Assembly: GCA_040387275.1 (NCBI GenBank)
Contig: JAZKDZ010000003.1
Location: 105,858 to 129,857, forward strand
Length of the DNA stretch: 24,000 bases
DNA from: Bdellovibrionota bacterium
GTDB lineage: Bacteria; Bdellovibrionota; Bacteriovoracia; Bacteriovoracales; Bacteriovoracaceae
Direction of reading: 5' to 3'
Under the pieces are notes generated by a model, which worked only from the letters and a program-made list of their open reading frames with translations, made no database searches and was not told the origin of the DNA. This document shows, piece by piece, positions 2-16,620 of the stretch. The first letter of the stretch is position 1. Every line of letters begins with the position of its first letter. Made by a program: the position numbers and the translations under genes.

Positions 2-412
2 TTAATTAAAATATTTAGCAGGAATGGGAATATTTTTCGTGTAAATGATGCCGACTCGTTTGGTCAGGATTAAAGGTGGGAATTTTTTTATTATTTTAAC
101 TCTCCATCCCCATTTGGGTTTTTTATCATCCCATCTCCATTCAGATGTTTTGTCTACAAGGTGACTGTTGAAGTCTGTGTAGAAGGCGTCTTCTGAGGGG
201 TATAAAAAGCATTCGGTAAATTCAATCAAGGCAATAGCTCTTGATTTGAACTTTTGACTCTTTCCTGGTGTTTCAATAAGTAGCAAACTTCGATTCAAAT
301 ATTCTTTAGCAAGAGGATAAGTCCGTGTCTCTATGTCTTTTTTTTCTTCAGCGATATATTGCGAATATGGCCATTGAATACAAATCCCTGAAGTCAGCAC
401 AGATTTAGACAT
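2..412 (-). CDS. ASCH domain (PUA-like fold) protein
   Basis: The 136-aa ORF has an N-terminal pattern, GICIQWPYSQYIAEEKKDIETRTYP, that matches the ASCH signature (I-x-x-P-W-a-x-x-I-x-x-G-x-K-x-I-E-x-R). Its start overlaps the stop of the upstream radical SAM gene by 8 nt (405-412), which implies translational coupling. Confidence 0.7.
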   Translation of the reverse strand: MSKSVLTSGICIQWPYSQYIAEEKKDIETRTYPLAKEYLNRSLLLIETPGKSQKFKSRAIALIEFTECFLYPSEDAFYTDFNSHLVDKTSEWRWDDKKPKWGWRVKIIKKFPPLILTKRVGIIYTKNIPIPAKYFN

Positions 413-1739
413 TTATCATTCCATCAAGCTTCAGAAGATTGGTTCCCAATGGTGCGTGAAGGTTACTTATATTTATTGGTTTGATATCTTTATAAGCAGA
501 ATGTTTAAGTCTAATCTCCCAATCAATATCTCGTGACGATTTTCCTTTGAATGCTTTTACGCGGTCAATAGCGTTGCAGCAGTCTTTCTTGTTATCCCAC
601 AAATCTTGGTCGTCCCAGAATTGAGACTCACCGTTACCAATATAGCAAGTTGTAAATTGAAGTCCATTTTGAACGCACTTCGCTTGTATACGTTCGTAAT
701 AAGCTCTTATTTCTTTTCTGCTGAAATGTTTGTCTCCTCTGGTTGCGAGTACCTCGTCAGTAAAAAATAATTTGAGGTCTACTCCGCACGCCTCCTTGAT
801 CTGGACAATCGAAGATGGCGACAGACGAACCATACCAGCCAAGATTGATTGTGTTCCTGTCGCCGCAATTTCATCGATCATGTCAAAAGAGCTAAAATCA
901 AATTTTAATTTTCTTTTGTATTCTGGAAAATCAGGGTCAGTGAAATATCCATCAGGATGAATAGGGAAAAAAGGGTTTAGGCGTACTGTTGTCCAGAAAC
1001 CATTTTTTGTTAAAACTTTCAAGGCTTCAAGGCGCTTTTTAGCCGAAGGTGTACCAGGCTCTAAAAGTTTATTTAACTCATCGTTAGTGGATGCGATAGA
1101 CATTTGGATTGAGCATAGGTCAGGATTTAAGAGATCCAAATAGGGACTTTTAGATACCAGGTCGCTTCTTGTGAAAATAATGTACGGATACTGATAGTGA
1201 TCCAAGATTTTCAAAAATTCCTGCGTAACTTTATACTTTCGATCCATTGCCATGAATGAATCGGACATGGATCCAATCCTTATTGGAATTCGTTTTTCCA
1301 TCACTGATCGCCATTTACTAGGTTTGTCTGTTTCAAAAACGTCATAAAATGTTTGCCATAAGTCCGTTACATCTACAGGCATTGGAAAAGGTCGATTCCA
1401 ATACCCATGCTTAGTTAATTGTTCTTTGGCGTAACAGTAAACACAGTCATGCGTGCAACCTCTTCCATAAGTATCTACCTCGAATGCATATAAGCATTGT
1501 TGGCAGGAGCTATGAAAATTTACGAGTTTGAAGGGCGTTCCGAATATAATTCCCCCTCGAGGCTGTTCAAGGCCAAATCTTTGTTCAAGTTCTTTGTAAG
1601 TATTGAAGTCATAATCGCACTGATAATTTGAAAATCTTTTTAACTTTTCAGCTCTCAAGAATATTTGATCTGATTTTGGAGTGGGAAATTCTGGAATGGT
1701 TGAAACTGGAGTATCTAAAACCTCATGTAAAACTGTCAT
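405..1739 (-). CDS. Radical SAM protein, SPL/SplB-like (COG1533-type DNA repair photolyase family)
   Basis: A CxxxCxxC cluster, GCTHDCVYCYAKE, is encoded at about 1428-1460. Downstream blocks IRIGSMSDSF, IIFTRSDL, EPGTPSAKKRLEAL and RLNPFFP resemble the SPL-like family. I prefer the start at 1739 (MTVLHEV) because GAGG lies 7 nt upstream. The ORF-track start at 1808 adds a hydrophobic leader with no SD. Confidence 0.85.
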   Translation of the reverse strand: MTVLHEVLDTPVSTIPEFPTPKSDQIFLRAEKLKRFSNYQCDYDFNTYKELEQRFGLEQPRGGIIFGTPFKLVNFHSSCQQCLYAFEVDTYGRGCTHDCVYCYAKEQLTKHGYWNRPFPMPVDVTDLWQTFYDVFETDKPSKWRSVMEKRIPIRIGSMSDSFMAMDRKYKVTQEFLKILDHYQYPYIIFTRSDLVSKSPYLDLLNPDLCSIQMSIASTNDELNKLLEPGTPSAKKRLEALKVLTKNGFWTTVRLNPFFPIHPDGYFTDPDFPEYKRKLKFDFSSFDMIDEIAATGTQSILAGMVRLSPSSIVQIKEACGVDLKLFFTDEVLATRGDKHFSRKEIRAYYERIQAKCVQNGLQFTTCYIGNGESQFWDDQDLWDNKKDCCNAIDRVKAFKGKSSRDIDWEIRLKHSAYKDIKPINISNLHAPLGTNLLKLDGMINV

Positions 1740-2064
1740 AATGACCTCGAGAGTTATCGCTTTGATTTGTGTTGGGCGATACATAACGATCAAGATGCAG
1801 AGTATCAATAGGTAGCGGAGTAGATTTTTTTTTATTTAGGAAGCGTCGGCGTTAAGTAGATGTTTGCACATAATCGATCCAGGGATATGTCACTATGGGT
1901 CATCTCTACTCGGGCCAAATTTACATAGTTAGTAAGCTTTGGACCTAAGGAGTTATCAGCTTCAGGTGTTTAAAATTTTTGTTTATAAATCCCGCTTTTC
2001 AAATGATTTGTATTTAATCTTTTCAATGGTGATAGTTCCGGCAGGCTAATGCGTTCGCATAAGG

Positions 2065-2703: not shown

Positions 2704-3708
2704 ATGGCTAGAAGACCGATGAGTCAGTATGAGAAAGACGCTCAAAAAAAGCTGATGCAAGAGATTAAGCAACAAGAGAAAGAGCAACGTAAGAACGAAA
2801 AAGAAACAGCAAAATATAACTTCAATAACCTGACTGAGGATTCGATTAGATCATTCCAGATGGGGAGGTTCTCTTACGAAAAGTCGGCTTATGAGATGAA
2901 ACCAGATCTCAGAAGTATCTTTGAGATTTTAAAAGGTGATGGTTTTGAGCCAGAGTTGGAAAACAAAAGAATTAAGCTAAGCGATGTTGACCATTTTCTT
3001 TATTCCGGGAAGTTCAATTCAGTTTTAGGTCTAAATGGATTTAAAACTTTCAAAGAACAGATTAAAGCGATTCTCGATGACATCAATCGTGGGACAAGTA
3101 GGGATAACCTGGTCAATCTCGATGCTTTATTTGATCTTCTTCTTCATTCAGGAATTTATTTCGAGACAAAACATCTTCCAGAATACATGGCTGATGTAGA
3201 GGGCGAGGAAGGTTGGTTAACGGCCTATCGATTTGTTGCGAAAAATTTCCCAGACCTCACCTATAAAGAATTTAGAACTATCGTGAAAGACATTTCTAAA
3301 TCCAAAGGAGACGCAATTGAATTTGAGGAAGAGGAGAAAGAAACTAATCTATACAAAAAAATTGCTTCCTCTAAGCTATTCGTCGCTGACTCAAGCCCTA
3401 TTTCTATCCTTCAAACACTAGTCATGAGTGATATTCGTGCTATTTGTACTGAGCTAGAGGTCCAAGGGGCGCGTAGCAAGGAGCAAACAATTGAAAAACT
3501 TCTTACTGCCCCAGGTATTGAAGAGCATCTCTTAAAAAAATATTCGCATAAGCAAAATGGCTTAGTCTTCATGATCAAAGACAAAGATCTCGTCACAGGG
3601 GCCGACATTGTTTCGCTCGATAAATATCTAAGGCATCTCGCGAAAGCAGTTCGTGAAGAGCTGTTTTCATTTGTTGAATCTAAAATGAACTTTAAATTGG
3701 TGGGGTAA
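2704..3708 (+). CDS. Hypothetical protein with K/E-rich N-terminus and C-terminal SAP-like (helix-extended-helix) motif
   Basis: This is a 334-aa ORF with GGGAG 4-5 nt upstream of the ATG. The segment LQTLVMSDIRAICTELEVQGARSKEQTIEKLL fits the SAP/HeH spacing pattern L-x2-L-x4-(I/L)R-x5-L-x3-G-x3-K-x3-(I/L)-x-(R/K)-L. Its stop lies 3 nt from the next gene. Confidence 0.7.
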   Translation: MARRPMSQYEKDAQKKLMQEIKQQEKEQRKNEKETAKYNFNNLTEDSIRSFQMGRFSYEKSAYEMKPDLRSIFEILKGDGFEPELENKRIKLSDVDHFLYSGKFNSVLGLNGFKTFKEQIKAILDDINRGTSRDNLVNLDALFDLLLHSGIYFETKHLPEYMADVEGEEGWLTAYRFVAKNFPDLTYKEFRTIVKDISKSKGDAIEFEEEEKETNLYKKIASSKLFVADSSPISILQTLVMSDIRAICTELEVQGARSKEQTIEKLLTAPGIEEHLLKKYSHKQNGLVFMIKDKDLVTGADIVSLDKYLRHLAKAVREELFSFVESKMNFKLVG

Positions 3709-3711
3709 GAT

Positions 3712-5007
3712 ATGACTTATATGTTTTATGCGATTGTTCTTCTTTTAATAACAGCCGGAGCTTTATTTTATTCCCTTGTTCTAAGGAATCAGGAAATAAA
3801 GAAGTTGGAAGATGTCATTCGGGAAAAAGATAAAGACATTAGCGCTCTTAAGCCTAAAGCAGACAAATATGATGAAAACGAGGGGTTCGAGTCATTGATC
3901 ACGAGTAAGCAAGAGATTGTTCAAAAGCTTGAGTCTGTTTTTGAAGAATTAAAATCGCGAATTGATCCATTCCAAACGCATATGGAATTAGCCGATACTG
4001 GCCACTTCAGGCCGGAATTTAAATTTGAAGATGTTGATAAGTATTCCGAGGCTCTTACAGCAATTAAGGAAGCCCAGAAAGTCTTAATCAAAAACGCATC
4101 AGCAATTGATACCTCCTTACCTGATTTCAAAAAATCGGACATATACAAAGGTCTATCCCGTGTTTCACTCCTGGCATTCAATGCTGAATGTGAATCAATC
4201 ATAAGAAAAGTAACTTACAGCAACTTTGAAAGCGGTAAAGAGAAGCTGATTGATTGCTTTCACACGATTAATAAAAATTTATCCCCTCTAAAAGTTTCGA
4301 TCACTGAGGAATTCTTAGATTTAAAAGTGAAAGAATTGGTTTTAGGCTTTGAATTTGAAGATGAGAGAAGAAAAATCCAAGAAGAGCAAGCTGAGATCAT
4401 GTCGCAGATGAGAGAGGAAGAAGCCGCTCGTGTTGAGGCAGAAGAGGCTCGATTGGATGCCATTGAAGAAGAAGAGAAATATAAGGCTGCACTTGCCCAA
4501 GCTTTCAAAGAAATTGAAGGGAAAACTGAGAAAGAAAAAGAAGGGATGATGTCTCAAATTAGGGAGCTTGAAGCAAAACTTCAGGAAGCCCATGCAGAAA
4601 GAGAGCGTGCTACTTCGATGGCCCAAATCACAAAAGCCGGGCACGTCTATATCATTTCGAACATAGGATCTTTTGGTGAGAATATTTACAAAATTGGGAT
4701 GACGAGAAGGAAAGATCCTCAAGATCGAGTTAAAGAACTGAGCGATGCTTCTGTTCCATTTACATTTGATGTTCATGCAATGGTTCACACCGAAAATGCA
4801 CCCGAATTAGAAAATGCTCTACACAGATTTTTTGATCAAAGAAGAATGAATAAAATCAATATGAAAAAAGAATTTTTCAAAGTCACCTTAGAGGAAATTG
4901 AGACAGCATGTTTAAGCCTAGGAGTTAAGCCTAAGCTCACCAGAGCGGCTGAAGCTAGGGAGTATCGTGAGACAATCGAGATTCAAGAAAAGTCGAAAGT
5001 GGCATAA
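3712..5007 (+). CDS. DUF4041-family protein: N-terminal TM helix, long E/K-rich coiled coil, C-terminal T5orf172/MUG113 (GIY-YIG superfamily-like) domain
   Basis: The TM helix is MTYMFYAIVLLLITAGALFYSLVL. A coiled-coil segment reads EEQAEIMSQMREEEAARVEAEEARLDAIEEEEKYK...LEAKLQEAHAERERA. The C-terminal block GHVYIISNIGSFGENIYKIGMTRRKDPQDRVKELSDASVPFTFDVHAMVHTENAPELENALHRFFDQRRMNKINMKKEFFKV (about nt 4633-4912) is the characteristic T5orf172 signature found at the end of DUF4041 proteins. Confidence 0.9.
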   Translation: MTYMFYAIVLLLITAGALFYSLVLRNQEIKKLEDVIREKDKDISALKPKADKYDENEGFESLITSKQEIVQKLESVFEELKSRIDPFQTHMELADTGHFRPEFKFEDVDKYSEALTAIKEAQKVLIKNASAIDTSLPDFKKSDIYKGLSRVSLLAFNAECESIIRKVTYSNFESGKEKLIDCFHTINKNLSPLKVSITEEFLDLKVKELVLGFEFEDERRKIQEEQAEIMSQMREEEAARVEAEEARLDAIEEEEKYKAALAQAFKEIEGKTEKEKEGMMSQIRELEAKLQEAHAERERATSMAQITKAGHVYIISNIGSFGENIYKIGMTRRKDPQDRVKELSDASVPFTFDVHAMVHTENAPELENALHRFFDQRRMNKINMKKEFFKVTLEEIETACLSLGVKPKLTRAAEAREYRETIEIQEKSKVA

Positions 5008-5043: not shown

Positions 5044-7857
5044 ATGGATACTGAGAAAAATCTTGAGGTTTATGAAGCGAATATCGCTCTCATGATGAAC
5101 CGTGGTGATTTTAATGAGCGTACAAAGCAAATCCAATTCTGCAATTTAATGAGGGATTTGATTGTCGAGGTAATTAAAAAGCCTTTCAACAAGAATACAA
5201 TCACAGGACTTATACAAGTAGGGAAATTCTATTCCTCAGATGAGTGCATTCATAAATATGTTCAATTATTTGAAATAGAAGATCCTGAATATTTCATAAA
5301 GAACATGACAAGTATCGAGATTAACTTTCGTGGTTTAACGGGTGCAGGAAAACGCGCGGTAAGTGTAGATGAGGTTGGGAGAAGTAATTTAGAGAAAGTC
5401 AGGAGTTTTCTGATCTCCGTGAGCGAAGCTAAGTCTTATGAAGAAGCTAAAGAAGCTGTTAAAAAATTTACAGATCTTAACATTCCCGTTGTTAAGCACG
5501 GCATATTCTCTACCTGGTTAATATACCTCCAACCATATTTTTGTCCTATATTAAACAATATGGGCTCATCACTTTACGAAAGTCTAGGATGGGATGGAGA
5601 GTCCTATCTCTCTTTTATGGAATTCGCACACAATAAACTTTCAGAATGTGTTGAAGGCCGGAATTTATTATATATAGATGCCTCTAGCTGGCCTCACCTT
5701 TTGCCAGGGTTGCTCCCACACGTTTTAATTTGGGGTAAGACTAGTTTTCAACTAGAAACAGGCATCGCGAACTTCAATAAAACATTTGCTTCAGTTGAAT
5801 CGAAACTGTGGTCAGAATGTGAGAGTTGGATATTTGGGGCAACATCTTGCCTCGTTGCTCCAGTAGATTTTTGCGGATATCAAAATCTAAGTTGGGATAA
5901 GTATAGGGAACATTATCTTAAAGATTCAATCGCGATTCCATCTAAGAAGCTCGTACAAAAAAAGAATTTTAATCTTACTGAAATAACAAGTGGTGAGGTT
6001 TTCGCTGTATGGAATAATTGGATGCTTAATCAGGGTTTAAAAATAGAGGGTAGAAGACTTTTTGGAAGCGAAATTGAAGTATCAAACAGAACTTCCGTCG
6101 AAAAGTTGCCTCTACTTGCTTATAGATCTTTAAGCATGTCGAATTTATCACCCATGGCCAATCAGCTTATTCAGACACTTTTCGAAATGGGAGCAATTGC
6201 TACAAATTGGGAAGAAGTGTTTGAGGAAGAGTTTATACCTTTGGATATGCTGTTATCGAAATGGAAAAGTACCAATAATAATTTTCAAGACTTATTGGGC
6301 GCATTGGAAGAGTTGAGAATCGCTGGTTTGCTGGGTATGACCGATGAGAATGAAAAGAAATTATCTCCTCAAAAACTCCAGCAAGTAACTGAATCACAAT
6401 TTTTTAATCAGAATGTTTATTTCGAAAAAGGCTTTAGTGATCTCTTCGAGTTGAATGCTTTGCATCCTTTAATATCAAATTTTCAACCTGTCCTTACTGG
6501 AGTTAAGTCTATGGCTGTAACCACTAAAACAGACTTTAAGCTTAATACTATTTTTTGCGGACCACCGGGTACGGGGAAAACATATCATTCTATATTTAGA
6601 GCACTTGATATCCTAGGGGTTATTGTCCCTGGCGGAAGAGGAAGCGATGAATTTAGAGCAGCAGCTATTAAAGCATTCGAAGACCAAATCAAAAAAGGCA
6701 ATATTCTTTTTCTCACTTTCAATCAAGCGTATAGTTACGAAGAATTTATTGAAGGAATTAGACCCATTCTGAACAAAGATCAGCTCTCATATAAACTTGA
6801 AGATGGGGCTCTCAAAAAGTTTCTGTTTGGTGGATCCCAGATTAAAGATCTATTCAGTGCCGGTGATGTCTTGAAGGCTACGCGTTCCAAATTCGTTGTA
6901 GATAAAGTTGATAATGGAAATATCAAGCTTAGAAAATTTGAACTATCAGGTGAAGACAGTAGAGGAAATATTTATATTCCTTTAGAGGCTTTACAAGAGC
7001 TATGGCAATACATGAAGAATAAAAATGTAACCGCTGAAGTTCTTATGTCTCGGGATTACCTTGGAAATATTAAACAAGACCTGGAAACTGATAATTTTGT
7101 TCTCGGTTATACAGCTGAGTTTACGGCTTGCTTGAATCACTTAAAATCAAAAGAATTAGATATTCGAGACAATACCAAGGCCAAGGTTCTAGTTATAGAT
7201 GAGATTAATAGGGGGAATGTTTCACAAATTTTTGGTGAGCTCATTACTCTTCTAGAAGAAGATAAAAGGGAGGGTAAAGGGGTTACGATAAAACTTCCTT
7301 ATTCAAAAGAATCTTTTATTCTTCCTCCAAATCTTTACGTTTTGGGAACAATGAACACTGCTGATAAATCTATTGCTCCATTAGATTTTGCTTTGAGACG
7401 AAGATTTCACTTTGAATCTTACTGGCCTGATTCAAGGCTGGTATCTGACAAATGGAAAGTTGAAGGAATAACTAGAGAACAGGCTCGAGTTTCCTTTGAA
7501 AGTCTGAATGAAAAAATCGAAATGTTACGAGGCAGAGACTACACAATTGGTCACAGTTATTTTCTAAAAACACATAGTCCTGAGGATCTATATAGAACTA
7601 TTTTTGAGCAAATTATTCCTTTGTTGAATGAATACTTTTATCAAGACTGGAAATCTCTTGGTTTTATCTTAGGGAAAGGCTTCGTTCGACAACATCCAGG
7701 TATGAAAAAATTTAAAGGTGTTTCAAACCTACTGGATGAGTGCTGGGTCATTAATGACTTTGTAGAATATGGCAATATCAACATGTCGGCATTTCTGAAG
7801 GCATTTTCTGACTTAGGAAAAATGGAAGATTCAGATGATTCACAAGAAACTGCATGA
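5044..7857 (+). CDS. mcrB: McrB-type AAA+ GTPase (type IV restriction motor subunit) with long unassigned N-terminal region
   Basis: GAGG lies 5 nt upstream of the ATG. Walker A GPPGTGKT is at nt 6559-6582 (aa 506-513). The motifs YSYEEFIEGIRP, Walker B VLVIDEINRG (D-E at 7198-7203), the McrB signature GTMNTADKS (7354-7365) and ALRRRFHF are present. Residues 1 to about 500 carry no motif I can assign. Confidence 0.9.
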   Translation: MDTEKNLEVYEANIALMMNRGDFNERTKQIQFCNLMRDLIVEVIKKPFNKNTITGLIQVGKFYSSDECIHKYVQLFEIEDPEYFIKNMTSIEINFRGLTGAGKRAVSVDEVGRSNLEKVRSFLISVSEAKSYEEAKEAVKKFTDLNIPVVKHGIFSTWLIYLQPYFCPILNNMGSSLYESLGWDGESYLSFMEFAHNKLSECVEGRNLLYIDASSWPHLLPGLLPHVLIWGKTSFQLETGIANFNKTFASVESKLWSECESWIFGATSCLVAPVDFCGYQNLSWDKYREHYLKDSIAIPSKKLVQKKNFNLTEITSGEVFAVWNNWMLNQGLKIEGRRLFGSEIEVSNRTSVEKLPLLAYRSLSMSNLSPMANQLIQTLFEMGAIATNWEEVFEEEFIPLDMLLSKWKSTNNNFQDLLGALEELRIAGLLGMTDENEKKLSPQKLQQVTESQFFNQNVYFEKGFSDLFELNALHPLISNFQPVLTGVKSMAVTTKTDFKLNTIFCGPPGTGKTYHSIFRALDILGVIVPGGRGSDEFRAAAIKAFEDQIKKGNILFLTFNQAYSYEEFIEGIRPILNKDQLSYKLEDGALKKFLFGGSQIKDLFSAGDVLKATRSKFVVDKVDNGNIKLRKFELSGEDSRGNIYIPLEALQELWQYMKNKNVTAEVLMSRDYLGNIKQDLETDNFVLGYTAEFTACLNHLKSKELDIRDNTKAKVLVIDEINRGNVSQIFGELITLLEEDKREGKGVTIKLPYSKESFILPPNLYVLGTMNTADKSIAPLDFALRRRFHFESYWPDSRLVSDKWKVEGITREQARVSFESLNEKIEMLRGRDYTIGHSYFLKTHSPEDLYRTIFEQIIPLLNEYFYQDWKSLGFILGKGFVRQHPGMKKFKGVSNLLDECWVINDFVEYGNINMSAFLKAFSDLGKMEDSDDSQETA

Positions 7858-9124
7858 GTATGACCGACTCGATTACGAAGAACTGAATTTAGATTTAGCT
7901 AAGGCCAATGGTCTAAAGAAATATCTAGATAATTCTGGGCTTCGCGGAGCCCTGGAATTTCATTCGGATCATCTCAAGGCAACTCAATATGTTGGTGTTA
8001 TCAACTATCGAGGACGTCGAATTGATGTTCTTCCCAAGTTGTTAAGTGGGGGCGTTGGTCCTGACAATGATGAAGAAATTCGACTCATGCAACGCAATCT
8101 TCTCATCATGCTCTCTTATACTAATCATCTTCATATCAAGGATTCTGACCTCAGCAATTTTGACTTAGGGAAAGATAATCTCATTGATGTTTTTATTTAT
8201 CTCTTCGCTAGAGATCTCGTTTTTGCCTTGAATAAAGAAGTATTACATTCTTACGAGAACAAAGAAGAAAACGTTTCTTTTATAAAAGGTAAGATAAGCT
8301 TCCATAAGGATAGTGTAATAAATCAGTTTAATAGATCAAAGACTGTGTGTAGCTTTACATCTTTTGAGCATAATAACATCTTCAACCAGACTTTTTACTT
8401 CCTCTCTGAAAAGCTTTTAGCCCTCACTAATAATTCAGCAACTAAACAATATTTAAACCAAGCTCTTAAATGTCTAGAGGGTGTTTCTAGAAAGCAAATT
8501 TCATACGACCAAATTAAGGACAAGGTTGTGGGGAGATCATTTGAAAATTTTGAAACTCCATTTAATTTCGCAAAAGTTTTTTTAAAGAATAATCGACCGT
8601 CGCTCTCTTCAGGATCGAGTGAGAATTATTGCTTGATGTTCAACATGAATAATGTTTTTGAAGAGTTTATATACTCTGCCTTAAATCGAAATAAAATAAA
8701 GCTAGGTCTCTCTCGTGTAGAGTTTCAGAGGAATAGAACTCTTTTCCAAAGTTGGATTGATCTAAGTACCAATGACGAGCTAGGCGGATTTGGAAGTGTG
8801 AGAAATGATATTTACTTAGAGTTTTCCAATAAAATGCGTCCACCTTTAATCATTGACACTAAATACAAGGAAGTCTCATCCGTAAAGGATGTCTCCTCTG
8901 AAGACTTCTTTCAGCTCCTGACTTACAGACACATTGAGCGGAAAGCTGGGCTCTTAAATACTCCTGAGATAAAATTAGTTTATCCTCAGAAGAGTGCAAA
9001 AATAAAAGCTCGCCTAACATTTAGCGGACAAGATAAAACACTGATAAATGTGCGAACATTTCCTCTTAGAGATCTAACGGCTGAATCAATTTTCTTATTA
9101 CTTGAAGAAATGCTGACAGCGTGA
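7835..9124 (+). CDS. mcrC: McrC-type PD-(D/E)xK nuclease subunit
   Basis: It overlaps mcrB by 23 nt. It has an N-terminal RIDVLPKL motif. The C-terminal NDIYLEF...PPLIIDTKYKEVS...FFQLLTY...KLVYPQ parallels the E. coli McrC segment TDITIR...ILIIDAKYYK...LYQLMNY...LLIYPH (D at 8855-8857). Confidence 0.85.
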   Translation: MIHKKLHEYDRLDYEELNLDLAKANGLKKYLDNSGLRGALEFHSDHLKATQYVGVINYRGRRIDVLPKLLSGGVGPDNDEEIRLMQRNLLIMLSYTNHLHIKDSDLSNFDLGKDNLIDVFIYLFARDLVFALNKEVLHSYENKEENVSFIKGKISFHKDSVINQFNRSKTVCSFTSFEHNNIFNQTFYFLSEKLLALTNNSATKQYLNQALKCLEGVSRKQISYDQIKDKVVGRSFENFETPFNFAKVFLKNNRPSLSSGSSENYCLMFNMNNVFEEFIYSALNRNKIKLGLSRVEFQRNRTLFQSWIDLSTNDELGGFGSVRNDIYLEFSNKMRPPLIIDTKYKEVSSVKDVSSEDFFQLLTYRHIERKAGLLNTPEIKLVYPQKSAKIKARLTFSGQDKTLINVRTFPLRDLTAESIFLLLEEMLTA

Positions 9125-9138
9125 CGCTTCTGGTAGAG

Positions 9139-10413
9139 TTATATCCCAAGAGCTTCTTTCGTATCGACAATTTTTTTATGAATCTCTGAGGCTAACTTCT
9201 CAATATAATGGCTTCGAAAATCTGCATCCATAAACTTTATGAAGTCGTTTCCTGGAATGTTCTTTAATACTAACTTCTTTGCAGCTGTAGTCCCTGTCCA
9301 GATAATCCACCAGGCATTGGTATGAGGAGGACTGAAGATACCATCTAATTTTTTTGCGATAATTTGTGCTTTTGGGAGTAACTTTTCGTTTCCACCGACT
9401 TTATTGTCCGAATTTACAAAGCGAAGCCCTTGATACAAGACCCCGTTTTCTTTATTTAAATTAAATATTACGGTCTCACCTTCTATCTTACCAAGTTCTA
9501 TTGTTAGACCGTAATAATTAGAACCCTGTCGAATGCGATCTTCATTAAAAGTTGTCTCACATTTAAAATCAACATCTGCTCCCAATCCTTTTAGTTTTTT
9601 CGTGAGATTGGTTTGTAACTCATTCCAGAATTTGAATTCCAGTTGAATTCGTTTCTCTTCAGCCGCATTCGCAAGAAGTAGTGCCGCATTCATCTTCTCT
9701 TCAGAGTCAATTAGTTTAAGAGTTTCGTTTAGAGTGCTCATCTGAATGGTATCTCCGGTCAGTTTCTTTATAAGGTTTTTATAGTGAATAAGAATTTGAT
9801 GGACTGAAGGATGGTCTGTCGATTTTGAAATACTTTTTTTTAAAAAATCTTGAATGAAGTCTTTGTAAGTTAGAATGATTACTTTTCCACGAGGTAAATC
9901 GCCTAATGAATCCTCGTTTGGGCCATGACCGTCTAAGTTCAAATAAATGAGATAAATTCCTTTCTTTAGATGGTTATACTTATCTGTGTAGTTGTAATAT
10001 CTCTCAAGTTGTCTATGCTGATCTTCAGCGTAGATTTTGTTTTCAACCACAATTATCGCATTCGACGTCTCTATTCTAAGATCTATTCTGCCGCCAGTTC
10101 CCTGCCATGGGGCTGATGTTTCGATTCCTATCTCTGTATTATAATCAGCAATAATGGTGAAGCTGTGTTGCGAATTTAATTGATCAACAAAAATTTGTAA
10201 AAACATATCTTTGAGACCATGTGATCCGGTAGGCGACAAGATTTCTCCAAGAAAACGACTATGTCCTTTTTCTTCATCTCTTTCCCGATCAAGAATAGAG
10301 AATATATTGAAATGTTGGGTAACATTCTTACTATTCTCTTCTTGAGCACTTCTAAAAATGATTTGCGCTTTGGCGAGTAGTTCAGAAATTGTCTCTGCAG
10401 GCTTGTTTGACAT
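9139..10413 (-). CDS. PD-(D/E)xK nuclease family protein (PDDEXK_4-like) with uncharacterised C-terminal half
   Basis: The N-terminal FNIFSILDRERDEEKGHSRFLGEILSPTGSHGLKDMFLQIF and GRIDLRIETSNAIIVVENKIYAEDQHRQLERYY (about nt 10030-10095) match the D...E-x-K core and flanking signature of that family. Its ATG lies 2 nt after the upstream DUF2779 stop. Confidence 0.75.
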   Translation of the reverse strand: MSNKPAETISELLAKAQIIFRSAQEENSKNVTQHFNIFSILDRERDEEKGHSRFLGEILSPTGSHGLKDMFLQIFVDQLNSQHSFTIIADYNTEIGIETSAPWQGTGGRIDLRIETSNAIIVVENKIYAEDQHRQLERYYNYTDKYNHLKKGIYLIYLNLDGHGPNEDSLGDLPRGKVIILTYKDFIQDFLKKSISKSTDHPSVHQILIHYKNLIKKLTGDTIQMSTLNETLKLIDSEEKMNAALLLANAAEEKRIQLEFKFWNELQTNLTKKLKGLGADVDFKCETTFNEDRIRQGSNYYGLTIELGKIEGETVIFNLNKENGVLYQGLRFVNSDNKVGGNEKLLPKAQIIAKKLDGIFSPPHTNAWWIIWTGTTAAKKLVLKNIPGNDFIKFMDADFRSHYIEKLASEIHKKIVDTKEALGI

Positions 10414-10415
10414 GA

Positions 10416-11894
10416 CTATTTAATCCTCATTAACCACTTAACAATCTCGACCATCGCTAAAGTGTCCTGATGACAATATTTCAAAAGGTCATCAATGATC
10501 TTCTTACGGGATTGATCATCTTTCGCCAGGTTAAACATCAGAAGCGAAGCCATGCTTTGTGCGGTTCCACCATCACCGATGTCGAGATTATCGTAGCTGA
10601 GTTTGTCGCCAATCAAAGCTGGTGCTACAGCTTTAATACTGAAGCTTCCTCGGAACTCTGGATCATAAACATAGTTTCTGAATATTGGGAGAGGATCAAC
10701 AAATCGATCAATAAGCGCCAACAAGTCAGCTTTATTTTTTTTATCGAATTCCGCGAGTTTTTTAATAACTCCAATCTCGAATGTCTGATTATAGGCCACG
10801 ATACTTCCTTTCTTACCCAGGTTCTTCAGCATGGAAGCTATCAGGCTATTCCTTGGGTCGCTATTTTCGGTGTGGAGAAATTCGAAATGATCCAAAGTTT
10901 TAGATTTGGCATCTTTCCAGACGTGACAGCTGAATTGGAAAGGAATCTGTACATAAGGGGAGGTTCCCTGGAATTTAGGGATAGCTGGATTGATGGTTTC
11001 AAAGTCAAAGAAGTATAACGGCCACTTCCAGTCTTTCAGCTCTTCTTGAATTCCTTTCTTATCGATATATGTTTTTTTATTCTGTGTTGCCTCAATCGCA
11101 CGTTTCGTTACGTTCTTATAGTTCCCAGGATTGAGATCGGATATTTTGATGAGCTTACTCTCATAATGATCCCACTTTTTACTGGTGAAAGAGGGGAGAT
11201 CGAAAATTGAGAAGTCCGGGACTTTCTTCCAGCAATTTTCCTTGTAAGGGCATTCATAAGGACTATCGCAGTGGCTACCAATGGACTTCTTAGGTTCTTT
11301 TTTATCTTTTACAACCTTCTTCAATTCAGCGATTGCCTTCTTTGTCTGAACCATCTCTGTTCTAACTTCTTCTGTGATGTCTTCAGTCGAGAAGAAGTCT
11401 ACGAAATTGGGGAACACCATATTGTTGTTAATATGGCGAAGAAAGATTTTTGTAAGCTTTATTCCTGAAGCTTCAATGACCAATGTCTGAATGGCACAAT
11501 CTTGAATGTAGGATTCTTTGACCTCTGTCGCTTTCTTCACTTCTATAAGGTGCCAGCCGGACTTTGTTTTCTTCAGGATATCCGCACGGAAGTACAGGTC
11601 ATCTTTCAGGAAAGCTGCTTCATAGATAAGTTTGGAGCCATTTGCTATCAGTTCCTGAGTTTTCTTAGCAGCTCCGGCTAAATCCCAATACTCACCTTCA
11701 ATAAGATCACCGGGACCTTCCAATTTTCTGGCGAGTTCTCCAACTTCATTTCCTTCGTCAAATTGCATTTGGGTAGCAGCTGAAGTTTCTTCCCGATCAA
11801 GAGGCTTATTCAACGTGAGCCAAAGAAGTTTTTCGCATTGAAAGCCGAGCATGAGTTTACTTTTAGAGAGAACGATATTTCTAGTTTTTGTCAT
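10416..11894 (-). CDS. DUF2779 protein: N-terminal Cas4/RecB-like nuclease with Cys cluster plus C-terminal exonuclease-like (RNase H fold) domain
   Basis: The N-terminus LSKSKLMLGFQCEKLLWL is typical of DUF2779. Nuclease-type motifs are RADIL...HLIEVKKAT and YIQDCAIQ. A three-Cys cluster, HCDSPYECPYKENCW, combines with the N-terminal QC Cys. The C-terminal motifs are YFFDFET (about 10997-11017), QIPFQFSCH, AYNQTFE and KYCHQDTLAM. Confidence 0.85.
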   Translation of the reverse strand: MTKTRNIVLSKSKLMLGFQCEKLLWLTLNKPLDREETSAATQMQFDEGNEVGELARKLEGPGDLIEGEYWDLAGAAKKTQELIANGSKLIYEAAFLKDDLYFRADILKKTKSGWHLIEVKKATEVKESYIQDCAIQTLVIEASGIKLTKIFLRHINNNMVFPNFVDFFSTEDITEEVRTEMVQTKKAIAELKKVVKDKKEPKKSIGSHCDSPYECPYKENCWKKVPDFSIFDLPSFTSKKWDHYESKLIKISDLNPGNYKNVTKRAIEATQNKKTYIDKKGIQEELKDWKWPLYFFDFETINPAIPKFQGTSPYVQIPFQFSCHVWKDAKSKTLDHFEFLHTENSDPRNSLIASMLKNLGKKGSIVAYNQTFEIGVIKKLAEFDKKNKADLLALIDRFVDPLPIFRNYVYDPEFRGSFSIKAVAPALIGDKLSYDNLDIGDGGTAQSMASLLMFNLAKDDQSRKKIIDDLLKYCHQDTLAMVEIVKWLMRIK

Positions 11895-11907
11895 AATGAA
11901 TTGTACT

Positions 11908-12804
11908 TTATGGTCTTCTCAATTTCTGAGACTTTGAAAGGGCTCCCATGAGTTCGCATTGCTGACAGAGAGTCATATCATCAAGTCCAACATACTTATC
12001 TGGTGACGTAATTATCCCTGTCTCATATGAGGCTATGTATTTCAAAGCATCAGCTTGTCGTATTTTTAAAAAATCTGCGGCTTCAGATGGGATTGAGCCT
12101 CGTTGAATCATTGAAAGAAAAATAAAATGTTTTCCTTTCTTTGAGAGGGAAGGTTCTGACAAATACCTGTAACTTTTGTAAATGAATTTCTTCCTGAGTT
12201 CAACATCGTTATTAATCAAAGTAAGTCCGAAGCGTGGTGCTGTCGTAAAAGGAATCTTCGGTAACTGATCACTTGGCTTTATTTTGAGACTGCTGTTTGA
12301 ATCGAATGGAGATAGTTCCTCAAGCTTCGGTGCAAGAGCTTTGATATCGGAAGCGCCAAAATTATTCATTAAAAGATCTACGAATAAGCTGGAGCCTTCT
12401 TGATATTCATTGGATTGTACATTTCGAACAGCTCTTATTAGGATTCCACCTCGGTTAATTCCATTCCCAATAGTTAAATCCAATCCTTTATAGTTTCCAT
12501 TACTGTAGCCACCCTCACCCTTGCGATGAAAATACCACTGAAGGTTTTCTGCCTGTCTTTTATTCCCATGAACGAAAGGATCTTTATAAATTGCAGGAAG
12601 AAAATAGAATTCAATTTCCATCAGTCGATAATCTTTTCCATTTATTTCTACTAAACTCTGATTGAGTAAGACATCTGCAATAGCAGGATAATATTGTTCG
12701 GCTTCTTCGACGGATGTCGCTCCATTCAGCTCGTTCACAAGTTTCGTCAGCATGCTAATTCCTTTGTAGTTCTTATCGGTAACAATACGTGAATTCATTC
12801 CCAT
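11908..12804 (-). CDS. Putative DNA glycosylase-like protein (divergent AAG/MPG 3-methyladenine glycosylase fold)
   Basis: By-eye alignment to the MPG family gives: IADVLLNQSLVEINGKDYRLMEIEFYF against a..LLG..L....g....IVETEAY; KDPFVHGNKRQAENLQWYF against D.A.H....rT.RN..MF; GILIRAV against AVLIRA. The E-x-E-(F/A)-Y block lies at nt 12601-12621. An alternative start at 12753 (MLTKLV) has AAAGGA 7 nt upstream, a better SD than the ATG at 12804. It lies 13 nt upstream of the DUF2779 gene. Confidence 0.5.
   Translation of the reverse strand: MGMNSRIVTDKNYKGISMLTKLVNELNGATSVEEAEQYYPAIADVLLNQSLVEINGKDYRLMEIEFYFLPAIYKDPFVHGNKRQAENLQWYFHRKGEGGYSNGNYKGLDLTIGNGINRGGILIRAVRNVQSNEYQEGSSLFVDLLMNNFGASDIKALAPKLEELSPFDSNSSLKIKPSDQLPKIPFTTAPRFGLTLINNDVELRKKFIYKSYRYLSEPSLSKKGKHFIFLSMIQRGSIPSEAADFLKIRQADALKYIASYETGIITSPDKYVGLDDMTLCQQCELMGALSKSQKLRRP
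11917..11931. promoter_or_regulatory. One-mismatch copy of the TCTCAA-N3-TTGAGA palindrome (TCTCAA-TTT-CTGAGA)
   Basis: Read directly from the sequence. It sits in the last codons of the glycosylase-like gene, 23 nt upstream of the DUF2779 start codon. Confidence 0.3.
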
Positions 12805-12849
12805 TTTCTGAGACAGGAAGTTGCTATTTTAGATAAGGCAGGAGGGTCC

Positions 12850-13230
12850 ATGAAATCATTAAAGACATCTCATACTTTTCAGAACATCACTGAATGGTCA
12901 CATGACCTTAATAAATGGGTTTATTTATTCAAAACAATTCATGGTATTTACCCCACAATATTGTTGGCCGCTGACCGCACTTTCACAAAAATCGATATGA
13001 TCGCAAATACAAACAGTCGTCATAAAATCAAAGGTGCTTCTGGAAATTGTCCAGATAGGCCAGTTAGGATGATTGGATTTCAGGGAGCCAACTATGAATT
13101 GAAATTTTGTGTGAATGAATCTCTCGAAGTGAATAAAATAAATCTAATTTTTGAATTTGATTCTGGAGACGATGGAGAACAATTTGAAAAAGATTCATTA
13201 GCATTTTTTGCAATAGGAATTAATTGCTAG
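12850..13230 (+). CDS. Hypothetical small protein (126 aa)
   Basis: A strong SD, GGAGG, lies 5 nt upstream of the ATG. The gene is divergent from the glycosylase-like operon. I recognised no motif. Palindrome-related sequences flank it on both sides. Confidence 0.6.
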   Translation: MKSLKTSHTFQNITEWSHDLNKWVYLFKTIHGIYPTILLAADRTFTKIDMIANTNSRHKIKGASGNCPDRPVRMIGFQGANYELKFCVNESLEVNKINLIFEFDSGDDGEQFEKDSLAFFAIGINC

Positions 13231-13246
13231 TCTCAAAAATTGAGAC
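13230..13246. promoter_or_regulatory. Perfect palindrome GTCTCAA-AAA-TTGAGAC, second full copy of the candidate operator
   Basis: Read directly from the sequence. It begins at the last base of the stop codon of the 126-aa ORF, and its right end (13246) lies 137 nt upstream of the lipoprotein start (13383). The core TCTCAA-N3-TTGAGA is identical to the one at 2600-2614. Confidence 0.45.
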
Positions 13247-13382
13247 AGGTAGGCTTGGAGAAGCGCTAGTTATTTCAATACCTTGGGGCGGATCTGATAA
13301 TTCGATGTCATTAAGAATTCTTATTAATCTATTTTCACCTTATCCGCCGACAATAAGTTCAGTAACAAATTTAGGAACCAAA

Positions 13383-14972
13383 ATGAAACTTTCATTGTTT
13401 TTTATTTCTCTTCTTCTCGTTTCTTGTAACGGTGGCGGTGGCGGAGGAGGGGGATCCTCTGTAGCGATTTCTTACTGGGATATATCAGGTCTAGTTACGT
13501 ATCAATTTGTTCCGGCCACAGCGACTGGGCTTGATTATGCGGGAACTACCGAATTGCCGATGCGAAATGTTATAGTTCAAATCTTACGTTCCAGTGACAA
13601 TGTAGTTCTCGGAAGTGGCTCGACAGATGATAACGGTAATTACCTCGTTAAAATTCCTCAGGGTTCTCAAAATACTTCCATCAAGGTGTCTGCAAGAGCA
13701 GAGATGACTAGTCCCAGTGTTATTATCCAGGACAATACAAATAGTAATGCCAAGTACGTAGCAACCGGTCCTGTGAATGTTATCTTTGGCGATACAGTGA
13801 TTAGTACTTTGATTGCTCCAAGTGGCTGGGGAGGGAACTCCTATACATCGACCAGAGCTGCAGCACCATTTGCGATCCTTGATTCAATTTACACAGCAAT
13901 TAAAAAAGTGAAAGAAGCGCGACCTTCAACAGTACTACCTGCTTTGAAAGTAAATTGGAGTACATTGAATGTTGCAACATCAGGTGACCTAACTATTGGG
14001 CAGATAGGTACTTCTCATTTTAATCAGAATGGTCAGCTCTACATATTGGGTAAAGAAAATTCTGATACTGATGAATATGACCGTCACGTAATTGCTCATG
14101 AATGGGGACACTATTTTGAAGATAAACTAAGTCGTTCTGATAGTGGTGGAGGACAGCATTCCGATGGGGAAGTAGTCGATATGTCTCTGGCCTTTGGTGA
14201 AGGATGGGGAAATGCGCTTAGTGGAATTGTATTTTCACCAGACATAAATTACCGTGACACAGCTGGTGTAAAACAACAGGTAACTGCTATTGATTATTCA
14301 TTGGAAACATCACCGGACACCACGCCGGGTTGGTTCTCTGAAGTTTCGGTCCAGCAGATTATATTTGATATCTTTGATTCAAACGCAGATGCAGGCGATT
14401 CAGTTAGTTTAGGTTTAGGGCCCATACTTGATGTCTTTACAGGCTACCAAAAGACTACACCAGCTAAAACTTCAATTTTTAGTTTTATCACAGGTCTGAA
14501 AAATAATAATGCATCCAGTGTAGCTGCTTTAAATACACTGACTACTTCAAAGCAAATTTCCAACGTTGCTAATGCTTTTGGAACTGGTGAGACAAATAAT
14601 GGTGGATTGGCACGGATGCTTCCCATTTATAACCAACTTGTCGTTAACGGTGGCCCCGTGACTGTATTTATGGGTGGAGGAAGCGTGAGGATGAATGAAG
14701 CGGACAATAATAGATATTTCCGATTTACCGCTACAAGCACCTCAACCAAATTAACCTGGGCTTCAAGTGATACATATATTCTTTCAGTTTCAAGATTGGG
14801 GTCAACGATCTATGACGATCTCGAGCAAGCTCCCGACGGTAATATTCTTGGACCGTATTTTGATTTTGTAACTACAACACCGGGCTTAGAATATGTACTT
14901 CAAATAAGTACGCATCCTGATTTTGTTTTTGATTCAGCAAGTCCTGTCGAATTTGCAGCTAAAATTGAATAA
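13383..14972 (+). CDS. Putative zinc metalloprotease lipoprotein (HExxH)
   Basis: I prefer the internal start MKLSLFFISLLLVSC. It provides a signal peptide and an LVSC lipobox (Cys codon at 13425-13427), followed by a Gly8 linker. The motif VIAHEWGHYFE is an HExxH zinc site, with GEGWGNA downstream. The track start at 13224 adds 53 aa without signal-peptide character. Confidence 0.65.
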   Translation: MKLSLFFISLLLVSCNGGGGGGGGSSVAISYWDISGLVTYQFVPATATGLDYAGTTELPMRNVIVQILRSSDNVVLGSGSTDDNGNYLVKIPQGSQNTSIKVSARAEMTSPSVIIQDNTNSNAKYVATGPVNVIFGDTVISTLIAPSGWGGNSYTSTRAAAPFAILDSIYTAIKKVKEARPSTVLPALKVNWSTLNVATSGDLTIGQIGTSHFNQNGQLYILGKENSDTDEYDRHVIAHEWGHYFEDKLSRSDSGGGQHSDGEVVDMSLAFGEGWGNALSGIVFSPDINYRDTAGVKQQVTAIDYSLETSPDTTPGWFSEVSVQQIIFDIFDSNADAGDSVSLGLGPILDVFTGYQKTTPAKTSIFSFITGLKNNNASSVAALNTLTTSKQISNVANAFGTGETNNGGLARMLPIYNQLVVNGGPVTVFMGGGSVRMNEADNNRYFRFTATSTSTKLTWASSDTYILSVSRLGSTIYDDLEQAPDGNILGPYFDFVTTTPGLEYVLQISTHPDFVFDSASPVEFAAKIE

Positions 14973-15639: not shown

Positions 15640-16620
15640 ATGACAAAAACAGCCCAATTCCTTTTAGTGCTCCATCACGTCGCTACTTCTCCCAATCGTT
15701 GTCTTCCGGAAGAAAGACTTCGCTCACTTCTGGGAGATCCTCCGAAATCAACCTGGCACAGGCTTATTAATGAGCTCACCACGGGAACGAGTGATGTGCC
15801 TGCACTTCTCATGGAAACGATTCAGAAGGACACAGAGGGCGTATTCTATTGCGTGAACCACAGAGGCTGGCAAGCCTTTCTGGATGCTCATGAAGAGGGG
15901 AAGTTTCTCCTCGAATGTTACCGTCAGGTCGGCCATCTTCTCGATTCAGATTTCACGAATATGGTTTTCGATATCCCTGACATGAATAAAAAACATGTAA
16001 GCCGGATCGATCGGAAGTTCCTTCACTTGGTAAAAGTGAAGGCGCAGAAGACGAATAGCTCGAAAGAGATACTAAACTCCGTTATTCAGGGCCTCATTAC
16101 CGAAAAACAACTCGAACTCACTTACGATGGCGGAGTCCGGATTGTTCGTCCGCTGACTCTTTGCCAGCACCGGGATGATCTTTATCTCATGTGCTACCGC
16201 ATGAAAGATGGCGGGCAATGGGAAAAGAGAACTTATAAAGTGGCCCGGATGTCTGGGGTTAAGGTGCTTGAACGCAAGTTTCCTTATCCGGCGAAGAATG
16301 ATTGGGATCCGCTGAAAGAGTATCAAGGGTCGTCCGGAATTGTTCTGGGTGAAGAGAAACAAGTTCAGATCCGAGTATATGGAGTTTCGAGAAAGATCCT
16401 CGCGGAGAAAGATTTCTTCAACGGGAAGTTAACTAATCGTGACAAAGATTTTGATACCTATGTTTGCACGTATACCAACGTTCATGAATTTCTGGGACAA
16501 GTGTTTGTGTATGCCCAGGATATAGAGATTGTGGATGATGAATCATTGAAAGAAGCGTTTGTGAATAAAGCGCAGGCGGGGCTTCTTAGAAATCAAATTT
16601 CGAAGATCAAACTGGGCTAA
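15640..16620 (+). CDS. WYL-domain transcriptional regulator (wHTH-WYL architecture, BrxR/CapW-like class)
   Basis: The N-terminal region is wHTH-like (FLLVLHHVATSPNRCLPEERLRSLLGDPPKSTWHRLINEL). The central block ELTYDGGVRIVRPLTLCQHRDDLYLMCYRMKDGGQWEKRTYKVARMSGVKVLERKF matches the WYL pattern (x-Y...R-x-V-x-P...L-Y-L...Y......R-x-(F/Y)-x-(V/L)-x-R-(I/M)). Confidence 0.7.
   Translation: MTKTAQFLLVLHHVATSPNRCLPEERLRSLLGDPPKSTWHRLINELTTGTSDVPALLMETIQKDTEGVFYCVNHRGWQAFLDAHEEGKFLLECYRQVGHLLDSDFTNMVFDIPDMNKKHVSRIDRKFLHLVKVKAQKTNSSKEILNSVIQGLITEKQLELTYDGGVRIVRPLTLCQHRDDLYLMCYRMKDGGQWEKRTYKVARMSGVKVLERKFPYPAKNDWDPLKEYQGSSGIVLGEEKQVQIRVYGVSRKILAEKDFFNGKLTNRDKDFDTYVCTYTNVHEFLGQVFVYAQDIEIVDDESLKEAFVNKAQAGLLRNQISKIKLG

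Follow-up and report, generated by a model that had tools for sequence, protein, structure and literature searches.

The 24,000-nucleotide (nt) stretch analysed here, referred to as the window, comprises positions 105,858 to 129,857 of contig JAZKDZ010000003.1 (Bdellovibrionota bacterium, assembly GCA_040387275.1), and all coordinates given below for it are positions within the window. It carries a compact block of three minus-strand genes, named gA, gB and gC in order of transcription with gA first, which encode an AAG-fold glycosylase-like protein, a DUF2779 protein and a PDDEXK_4 nuclease, respectively. With slightly better than even confidence, the block is read as a mosaic of independently distributed DNA-acting genes that lie in a defence island and are probably co-transcribed. 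The genes and their domains are arranged as follows (aa, amino acids; HTH, helix-turn-helix; ORF, open reading frame):

12804..11908, minus strand: longest ORF of gA, 298 aa
11908..12753, minus strand: gA from its preferred start M18, 281 aa; glycosylase-like protein of the AAG fold that ends in an HTH-like domain
12154..12753, minus strand: predicted N-terminal AAG-like catalytic domain of gA, approximately aa 1-200
11911..12141, minus strand: predicted C-terminal helical HTH-like domain of gA, approximately aa 205-281
10416..11894, minus strand: gB, 492 aa; DUF2779 protein in which a Cas4-like nuclease is joined to a DEDDy-type exonuclease
11223..11840, minus strand: Cas4/RecB-like PD-(D/E)xK domain of gB, aa 19-224
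10431..11015, minus strand: DUF2779 / RNase H-like 3'-5' exonuclease domain of gB, aa 294-488 (Pfam coordinates)
9139..10413, minus strand: gC, 424 aa; PDDEXK_4 nuclease with a full-length match to PADLOC PDC-S26

The gene junctions, read directly, leave 13 nt between gA and gB and 2 nt between gB and gC, and the three minus-strand ORFs are those described in the first-pass annotation of this DNA. The motifs it pointed out are also in place, namely the MEIEFYF block of gA, the E-V-K core of gB (IEVKK) together with its cysteines (C20 and C209/C215/C221) and exonuclease motifs (FDFET, YNQTFE and QDT), and the D...E-N-K core of gC (IDLRIE...VVENK). The gene order and the 9139 end of the feature are retained, but the gA start at 12804 is replaced. 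Translation of gA most likely begins at M18 (12753), where AGGA lies 7 nt upstream of the ATG, while no such motif precedes 12804; furthermore, the NCBI gene model and all gA homologs begin at the position equivalent to M18. The block therefore spans 9139-12753 rather than 9139-12804. The ATG of gC is preceded by AGGA 10 nt upstream, within the 3' end of gB. A consensus scan for promoters and terminators inside the block gave no signal beyond the shuffled background, and a single transcript for gA-gB-gC is plausible. Since homologs were found for each of gA, gB and gC, these are real genes and not chance ORFs.

gA itself has no direct match in Pfam, NCBIfam or PADLOC; in particular, it does not match the methylpurine-DNA glycosylase family PF02245 at E values up to 0.1, nor does it reach the Pfam gathering score. 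A word-indexed search returned only three non-self homolog clusters, and an exhaustive profile search recovered 2,179 representatives at 50% identity. The Pfam tallies and invariant columns reported here were computed on a family alignment of 80 of these relatives, 31 of which match PF02245 (E up to 0.01; best 1e-8); one relative scored 23.3 bits, below the 27-bit cut-off. Because both phmmer and profile searches of the Protein Data Bank (PDB) missed AAG, the relationship is visible only through this tally of relatives and a fold search. The AlphaFold2 model of gA is of high confidence (pLDDT 95.7, pTM 0.92), and its eight best Foldseek matches in the PDB are all human AAG (E 1e-5 to 3e-4, probability 1.00), subsequent matches having E values above 0.2, which is noise. 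Ten residues are invariant across the 80 sequences (E48, Y50, H62, H76, G90, D92, R107, G120, R174 and R196). Alignment of the gA profile to human AAG with hhalign pairs E48 with E125, Y50 with Y127, H62 with H136 and R107 with R182, the catalytic and base-binding residues of AAG; the statistic is weak (E 0.076, single-sequence template), and the alignment is colinear across 135 columns. The AAG catalytic-domain sequence used was identical to that of the PDB entries. Taken together, the model and the alignments indicate that gA has an AAG/MPG fold, as in human AAG/MPG and bacterial Mpg (PF02245), with the catalytic Glu block kept, which agrees with the initial assignment of the 298-aa protein.

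Several features set gA apart from AAG. The TM-scores (TMt) reach only 0.46-0.50, the invariant D92 stands where the alignment places N169 of AAG, and an additional C-terminal HTH-like domain of about 75 aa is present; the gA family forms a separate, uncharacterised clade. This C-terminal domain was overlooked in the first-pass annotation. It consists of helices spanning residues 208-277 in the AlphaFold2 model, its profile matches the HTH region of IS21-type transposases, and among the 80 relatives the C-terminal HTH is recognised as HTH_23 in eight and as HTH_29 in five. Comparison of the gA subfamily with the wider family revealed no subfamily-specific change in the active site, the sole difference being A225 in the C-terminal domain. 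As the active site is the same as in relatives with housekeeping contexts, there is no sequence sign that gA has been re-tooled.

Representatives of the wider gA family lie mostly in housekeeping neighbourhoods in Myxococcota, Planctomycetota and Cyanobacteria, and at the 80 genome loci the immediate neighbours are housekeeping genes. Longer family members were uninformative as fusions, with a single DUF4326 fusion observed. The family, including its C-terminal domain, is also present in giant viruses (loci L097-L112 from IMG/VR, many of them GVMAG contigs), and the matches in BFVD (A0A3G5A9Y1, A0A1V0SB56 and A0A0G2YBS4) are all annotated as uncharacterised. The Hyperionvirus protein superposes on gA with TM-scores of 0.82/0.85 and a root-mean-square deviation of 2.2 Å over 264 columns, and the Catovirus and Mimivirus proteins match as well. 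Searches of plasmid and phage collections with gA gave no matches. The most economical reading of these distributions is that gA represents a rare branch, found in mobile contexts, of a large family that is uncharacterised, otherwise housekeeping and combines an AAG fold with an HTH. This family of about 2,200 representatives, shared by bacteria and giant viruses, has neither a Pfam model of its own nor a characterised member.

gB matches DUF2779 (PF11074) at an E value of 1.2e-40, with 139 bits against a 23.3-bit cut-off. Further Pfam matches are RNase_H_2 (1e-7) and Cas_Cas4 (2e-4), and the PADLOC Cas4 profile is matched at 1.2e-10. Its nuclease core comprises D105, E118, K120 and Q136, accompanied by the iron-sulfur (Fe-S) cysteines C20, C209, C215 and C221, and its DEDDy residues are D297, E299, D400, Y473 and D477; all of these catalytic and Cys residues are invariant among 46 orthologs (alignment A3). 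These matches and residues bear out the earlier assignment of gB to DUF2779, with a Cas4-like and an exonuclease-like part. The family is uncharacterised, and published descriptions of it as Cas4-like plus exonuclease agree with gB (PMC3985635, PMC13621843), the exonuclease domain having been placed in a 3'-5' exonuclease clade (PMC3985635). Relative to the DUF2779/solo-Cas4-exonuclease proteins (PF11074; relatives of TM0106 and UU173; MMSYN1_0389), gB has the same architecture with all catalytic and Fe-S residues and is indistinguishable from DUF2779 orthologs, so that its novelty lies in its context, as an anchor for variable defence cargo with diverse tight partners. Relatives of gB form more than 120 clusters with at least 39% identity; a metagenome scan yielded one weak locus, and no matches were found in phage collections.

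gC matches PDDEXK_4 (PF14281) at an E value of 4e-31 (108.8 bits against a 22.3-bit cut-off), and D111, E124 and K126 are invariant (alignment A5), in keeping with the family originally proposed for the third gene. PADLOC identifies it as PDC-S26 (PDLC04983; E 1.7e-89, residues 10-419 of 424), a candidate single-gene system for which no experimental validation was found in the literature search. gC resembles PDC-S26 over its full length and in its D-E-K core, and differs in starting 2 nt after a DUF2779 gene. Most economically, gC is a candidate defence nuclease (PDDEXK_4 / PDC-S26) that stands on its own and forms part of the AT-rich cargo. PADLOC recognises gC alone in the trio, and no named system has this composition, in line with the first-pass annotation, which knew of none.

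For the three proteins together, the folds, conserved catalytic residues, gene distributions and contexts are observed, and enzymatic activities, substrates, co-transcription and any cooperation are inferred. gA would bind duplex DNA and flip a purine-type base into a pocket formed by Y50 and H62, where E48 would activate water to break the glycosidic bond and leave an abasic site. With its Fe-S Cas4-like nuclease and its DEDDy 3'-5' exonuclease, gB could resect DNA in either polarity, starting at nicks or ends. gC might cut DNA as a PD-(D/E)xK enzyme.

Whether the three genes travel together was assessed by a hidden Markov model tally over 133 loci, including 102 gA-family loci (six subfamily contexts, 80 genome loci and 16 giant-virus/IMG-VR loci) and 29 DUF2779 loci (about 24 independent contexts). 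The full trio was found in none of the 101 other gA-family loci and in none of the approximately 23 other DUF2779 contexts. DUF2779 is present in three of the 102 gA-family loci and PDDEXK_4 in the window locus only; neither lies near gA at the 80 genome or 16 giant-virus/IMG-VR loci, and the DUF2779 partner is absent from the subfamily contexts P0002, P0003 and P0006 as well as from these 96 wider-family loci. The nearest relatives of each gene likewise occur without the other two. A gA homolog at 74% identity has PDC-S68 downstream of it, one at 68% identity stands alone with SNF2, AAA_14 and BrnT genes nearby, and downstream of the subfamily member at P0006 lie a thioredoxin-like gene and beta-lactamases. 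gB orthologs at 75, 72, 62, 60, 58 and 55% identity all lack gA. The closest non-self homolog of gC (47%) is the first gene of a PLD/helicase operon, and DUF2779 lay beside none of the gC-like genes in five sampled plasmid homologs. gA-gB-gC is not a conserved, co-inherited three-gene system, and the idea of one dedicated system, for which the first-pass annotation had looked to co-occurrence of the three families elsewhere, is not upheld: among these loci, the trio is unique to the window. Two of its pairs do recur. The fold, the family assignments and the island context of that earlier interpretation stand.

The distribution of gB suggests a different role within the island. A pair of genes encoding a radical-SAM protein and a protein of about 136 aa accompanies gB in the window and the gB orthologs at loci L091 and L092 (50-58% and 36-50% identity, respectively, across L091/L092), and the intervening genes are entirely different. 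In the window and L091, gB is followed by variable cargo and then by the pair; L092 has the same anchor genes in another order. The pair, located at L091:13469-15275 and L092:1-1152, may mark the flank of a hotspot or belong to the backbone of a mobile element. At L092, about 490 bp from the 3' end of the DUF2779 gene recur downstream of an AbiE cassette and of a HipA cassette, with 98.8% and 90.6% identity (copies at 7951-8438, 10289-10776 and 13433-13742), and each repeat is followed by the same pair of genes for proteins of 106 and 98 aa; the pattern suggests that elements have integrated site-specifically and in tandem at the DUF2779 3' end. The window itself contains no detectable tRNA genes, att-like repeats or gB fragments. 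Its GC content is 0.35-0.41 from position 1 to about 15.5 kb and 0.46-0.50 to the right of that, and the GC content at third codon positions is 0.44 for gB, 0.32 for gA, 0.32 for gC and 0.31-0.34 for McrBC, which groups gB with the higher-GC flank and gA and gC with the AT-rich cargo. The most economical reading is that gB is a resident, conserved anchor (55-75% identity across related genomes) with variable cargo around it.

On plasmids, DUF2779 genes lie in tight co-directional strings with QatABCD, dGTPase, NACHT/AAA ATPases, WYL, PLD and DEAD-helicase genes, sometimes including PDDEXK_4. For instance, on Arcobacter-group plasmids (L121:298-10756), DUF2779 starts 1 nt after the TatD/QatD gene of QatABCD and is followed by AAA, hypothetical and dGTPase genes, and strings running from DUF2779 to dGTPase also occur on plasmid loci L115 and L129. 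On several plasmids, DUF2779 has a WYL gene as its immediate neighbour (L114:3851-8465, L119:2751-7485, L113:8540-9343 and L130:3438-3956), and the order AAA ATPase, DUF2779, WYL is common to Rhodoferax and Diaphorobacter plasmids. Since DUF2779 is elsewhere equally tight to QatD, McrB, ATPases and WYL genes, the close spacing in the window is not diagnostic, and more generally, close gene spacing within defence islands should be regarded as weak evidence for a single system.

A four-gene arrangement at L088:6001-12952, the same in L089, bears on the neighbours of gB. Here DUF2779, a McrB-like gene, McrC and PDDEXK_4 follow one another in the same direction, so closely spaced (a 0-nt gap and a 14-nt overlap) that they form a single tight operon; the McrB-like protein (979 aa) contains DUF8426, AAA_5 and a lid. 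Integrase, HTH-regulator and DnaB_C/DnaA-like genes lie upstream, so the operon looks like a four-gene McrBC variant carried on an integrative element. The window resembles it in that DUF2779, McrB, McrC and PDDEXK_4 are contiguous, and differs in gene order and strands, in the unrelated McrB N-termini and in the presence of gA. The possibility that the window and L088 hold a rearranged orthologous four-gene block was considered and rejected, as McrC is 27% identical and PDDEXK_4 not detectably similar, against 62% for gB; similarity between the two McrB proteins is confined to the AAA+ core.

The setting of the block is a defence island, because PD-Lambda-1, McrBC and PDC-S26, identified by PADLOC and Pfam, adjoin one another in the window. 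The mosaic reading has to be weighed against four observations that count against it. gA is followed by DUF2779 in two lineages with very divergent DUF2779 proteins, which is unlikely by chance: at P0004 and P0005 (39% and 35% identical to gA), the next gene, overlapping by 4 nt, encodes a 648-aa DUF2779 protein only 23% identical to gB. In both lineages the two genes are on the same strand and translationally coupled, with the 4-nt overlap in the second gA-DUF2779 lineage (L002 and L083) and the 13-nt gap in the window. PDDEXK_4 is found in the DUF2779 cluster in five of the approximately 24 independent contexts, the window included; the L088 operon unites four of the families present here; and the gA subfamily sample is thin, with six contexts, several of them on contigs under 5 kb.

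The recurring pairs lend some weight to the possibility, put forward in the first-pass annotation, that the genes form a base-excision restriction module of two or three components, in which gA would remove a modified purine from invading DNA and DUF2779, perhaps with PDDEXK_4, would degrade the abasic or nicked product; this is a tentative alternative, clearly less probable than a mosaic. Such a module is consistent with the intact catalytic residues of all three proteins, the defence-island setting, the joint recurrence of DUF2779 and PDDEXK_4 and the PDC-S68, SNF2, AAA_14 and BrnT genes that adjoin gA subfamily members. In the second lineage, moreover, the start/stop overlap of gA and DUF2779 is followed at L002 by an incomplete gene with a D...E-V-K motif; membership of this third gene in PDDEXK_4 could not be demonstrated, as only its 23-residue D..ExK core aligns to that family (E 0.026). 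The module is further disfavoured by the nearest relatives of every gene, which lack the partners, by a gA active site indistinguishable from that of housekeeping-context relatives, by the differing base composition of the three genes and by the many unrelated genes to which DUF2779 is just as tightly linked. In addition, on an A. butzleri plasmid (L117:2427-5002), a transposase interrupts the PDDEXK_4 gene that lies upstream of DUF2779, and both DUF2779 and WYL are intact; on the sister plasmid L113, the PDDEXK_4 gene is intact.

A role in defence is proven for glycosylases of other folds (PMC11078745, PMC13160076, bioRxiv 10.1101/2025.10.29.685425). Brig1 and Brig3 belong to the uracil-DNA glycosylase (UDG) superfamily and Dag1/Dag2 to the helix-hairpin-helix (HhH) superfamily, and defence glycosylases are reported to have branched off from repair families, to be divergent and to occur in mobile contexts (bioRxiv 10.1101/2025.10.29.685425). 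Like Brig and Dag, gA is a glycosylase-type protein in an AT-rich defence island with type IV restriction genes adjoining. Unlike them, it has an AAG rather than a UDG or HhH fold, and most of its family resides in housekeeping contexts; Brig and Dag act alone or with a deglucosylase (BapA) and not with nucleases. The literature search found no AAG-fold defence glycosylase, the papers describing UDG and HhH members only. What is new here is that a gene for a glycosylase-like protein of the AAG fold lies in a defence context and is coupled to DUF2779. The recurring gA-DUF2779 pairing is the part worth testing: if it is functional, the AAG fold would join the glycosylase superfamilies used in anti-phage defence, and the widespread, uncharacterised DUF2779 would gain a role in DNA processing after a modified-base sensor. 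A bolder form of this proposal, in which gA and DUF2779 constitute a two-component base-excision restriction module, the HTH-bearing glycosylase tags invading DNA by removing a modified purine, the dual nuclease destroys that DNA from the abasic or nicked sites, AAG becomes the third defence superfamily after UDG and HhH, and PDDEXK_4 and McrBC are interchangeable partners of a DUF2779 hub, is more speculative still and rather unlikely. Under the favoured mosaic reading, DUF2779 genes are of interest as points at which variable defence cargo is anchored or inserted, and the co-recurrence of PDC-S26 (PDDEXK_4) and DUF2779 is frequent enough to justify a joint test.

Two further explanations are weaker than the base-excision module. 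According to the first, which is improbable, the block would be a DNA-repair module, with a glycosylase for alkylated or deaminated purines and end-processing nucleases placed by chance in a variable region. The mostly housekeeping neighbourhoods of the large gA family, its presence in giant viruses and an active site that matches AAG and is unchanged in the window subfamily would all suit a repair function, as would the quasi-essential status of DUF2779 in a minimal Mycoplasma genome (PMC13621843) and the evolution of solo-Cas4 genes like ordinary cellular genes (PMC5704561). However, PD-Lambda-1, McrBC and PDC-S26 are the immediate neighbours, the gA subfamily is extremely rare and patchily distributed, as a core repair gene would not be, most of its six contexts are defence- or mobile-like (those of the 80 wider-family genome loci are not), and plasmid DUF2779 genes sit within strings of defence genes. 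Least probable of all is a larger unit in which a modification-dependent McrBC would be assisted by two accessory nucleases, DUF2779 and PDDEXK_4, with gA added on as a second modified-base sensor: the L088 and L089 operon, the abutting of the same four families in the window and a GmrSD-type enzyme 1.5 kb from the L090 gB ortholog speak for it, but McrBC occurs in just two of the approximately 24 DUF2779 contexts, its genes and PDDEXK_4 diverge from those of L088 far more than gB does, and the gene sets in the window are convergent and not co-transcribed.

The remaining features of the window surround the block on both sides:

2-412, minus strand: gene for a 136-aa protein beside the radical-SAM gene; flank of the variable cargo
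405-1808, minus strand: radical-SAM gene, 467 aa; flank of the variable cargo
3712..5007, plus strand: PD-Lambda-1 homolog (DUF4041 + T5orf172/MUG113; PADLOC 6e-128 and Pfam), a known single-gene defence system
5044-7857, plus strand: McrB-like gene, 937 aa; AAA_5, NF008457 McrB
7835-9124, plus strand: McrC; PF10117 McrBC at 1e-54
12850..13230, plus strand: 126-aa ORF divergent from gA; no family match
15640..16620, plus strand: WYL-domain protein (PF13280 at 1.6e-6), 2.9 kb from gA

The stop codons of McrC and gC are convergent and 14 nt apart. The N-terminal portion of the McrB-like protein, about 480 aa (5044-6480, plus strand), has no recognisable domain and no relationship to DUF8426, with which McrB of L088 begins; it is presumably a novel modified-DNA reader domain. 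A 334-aa ORF (2704-3708, plus strand) without a family match stops 3 nt ahead of the PD-Lambda-1 homolog, and because PD-Lambda-1 is described as a single-gene system, this ORF may encode a partner that has escaped recognition, or it may be separate cargo. The radical-SAM protein has weak NCBIfam matches to PA0069/Rv2578c and to 'radical SAM mobile pair protein B'. The WYL-domain protein is a possible island regulator.

The 126-aa ORF has a homolog (E 3e-15) at L090:7293-7691 (minus strand), about 0.8 kb downstream of the L090 gB ortholog, and by this similarity it appears to be a second small gene travelling with gB. Its end is overlapped by 7 nt by a 582-aa ORF (13224-14972, plus strand), the product of which starts with a signal/lipobox-like segment and contains seven consecutive glycines, a Big-like domain and the zinc-metalloprotease motif HEWGH. 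In the second gA-DUF2779 lineage, a protein of about 135 aa is encoded ahead of gA (L002:223-636 and L083:137-541; 54% identity); it belongs to no family and has no counterpart in the window.

The L091 cargo (8523-13042), which separates the gB ortholog from the radical-SAM gene, codes for three proteins: a GIY-YIG protein of 179 aa, an unknown protein of 526 aa and one of 787 aa whose N-terminus is PLD/NgoFVII-like. It may be an undescribed defence operon. At L134:7001-12135, PDDEXK_4 is followed by a 320-aa gene, a PLD-like gene and a helicase, while at L114:5995-13470 the order is DUF2779, WYL, hypothetical, PLD and DEAD helicase. The two PLD/helicase operons, led by PDDEXK_4 and DUF2779, respectively, have no detectable homology and are parallel in architecture only.

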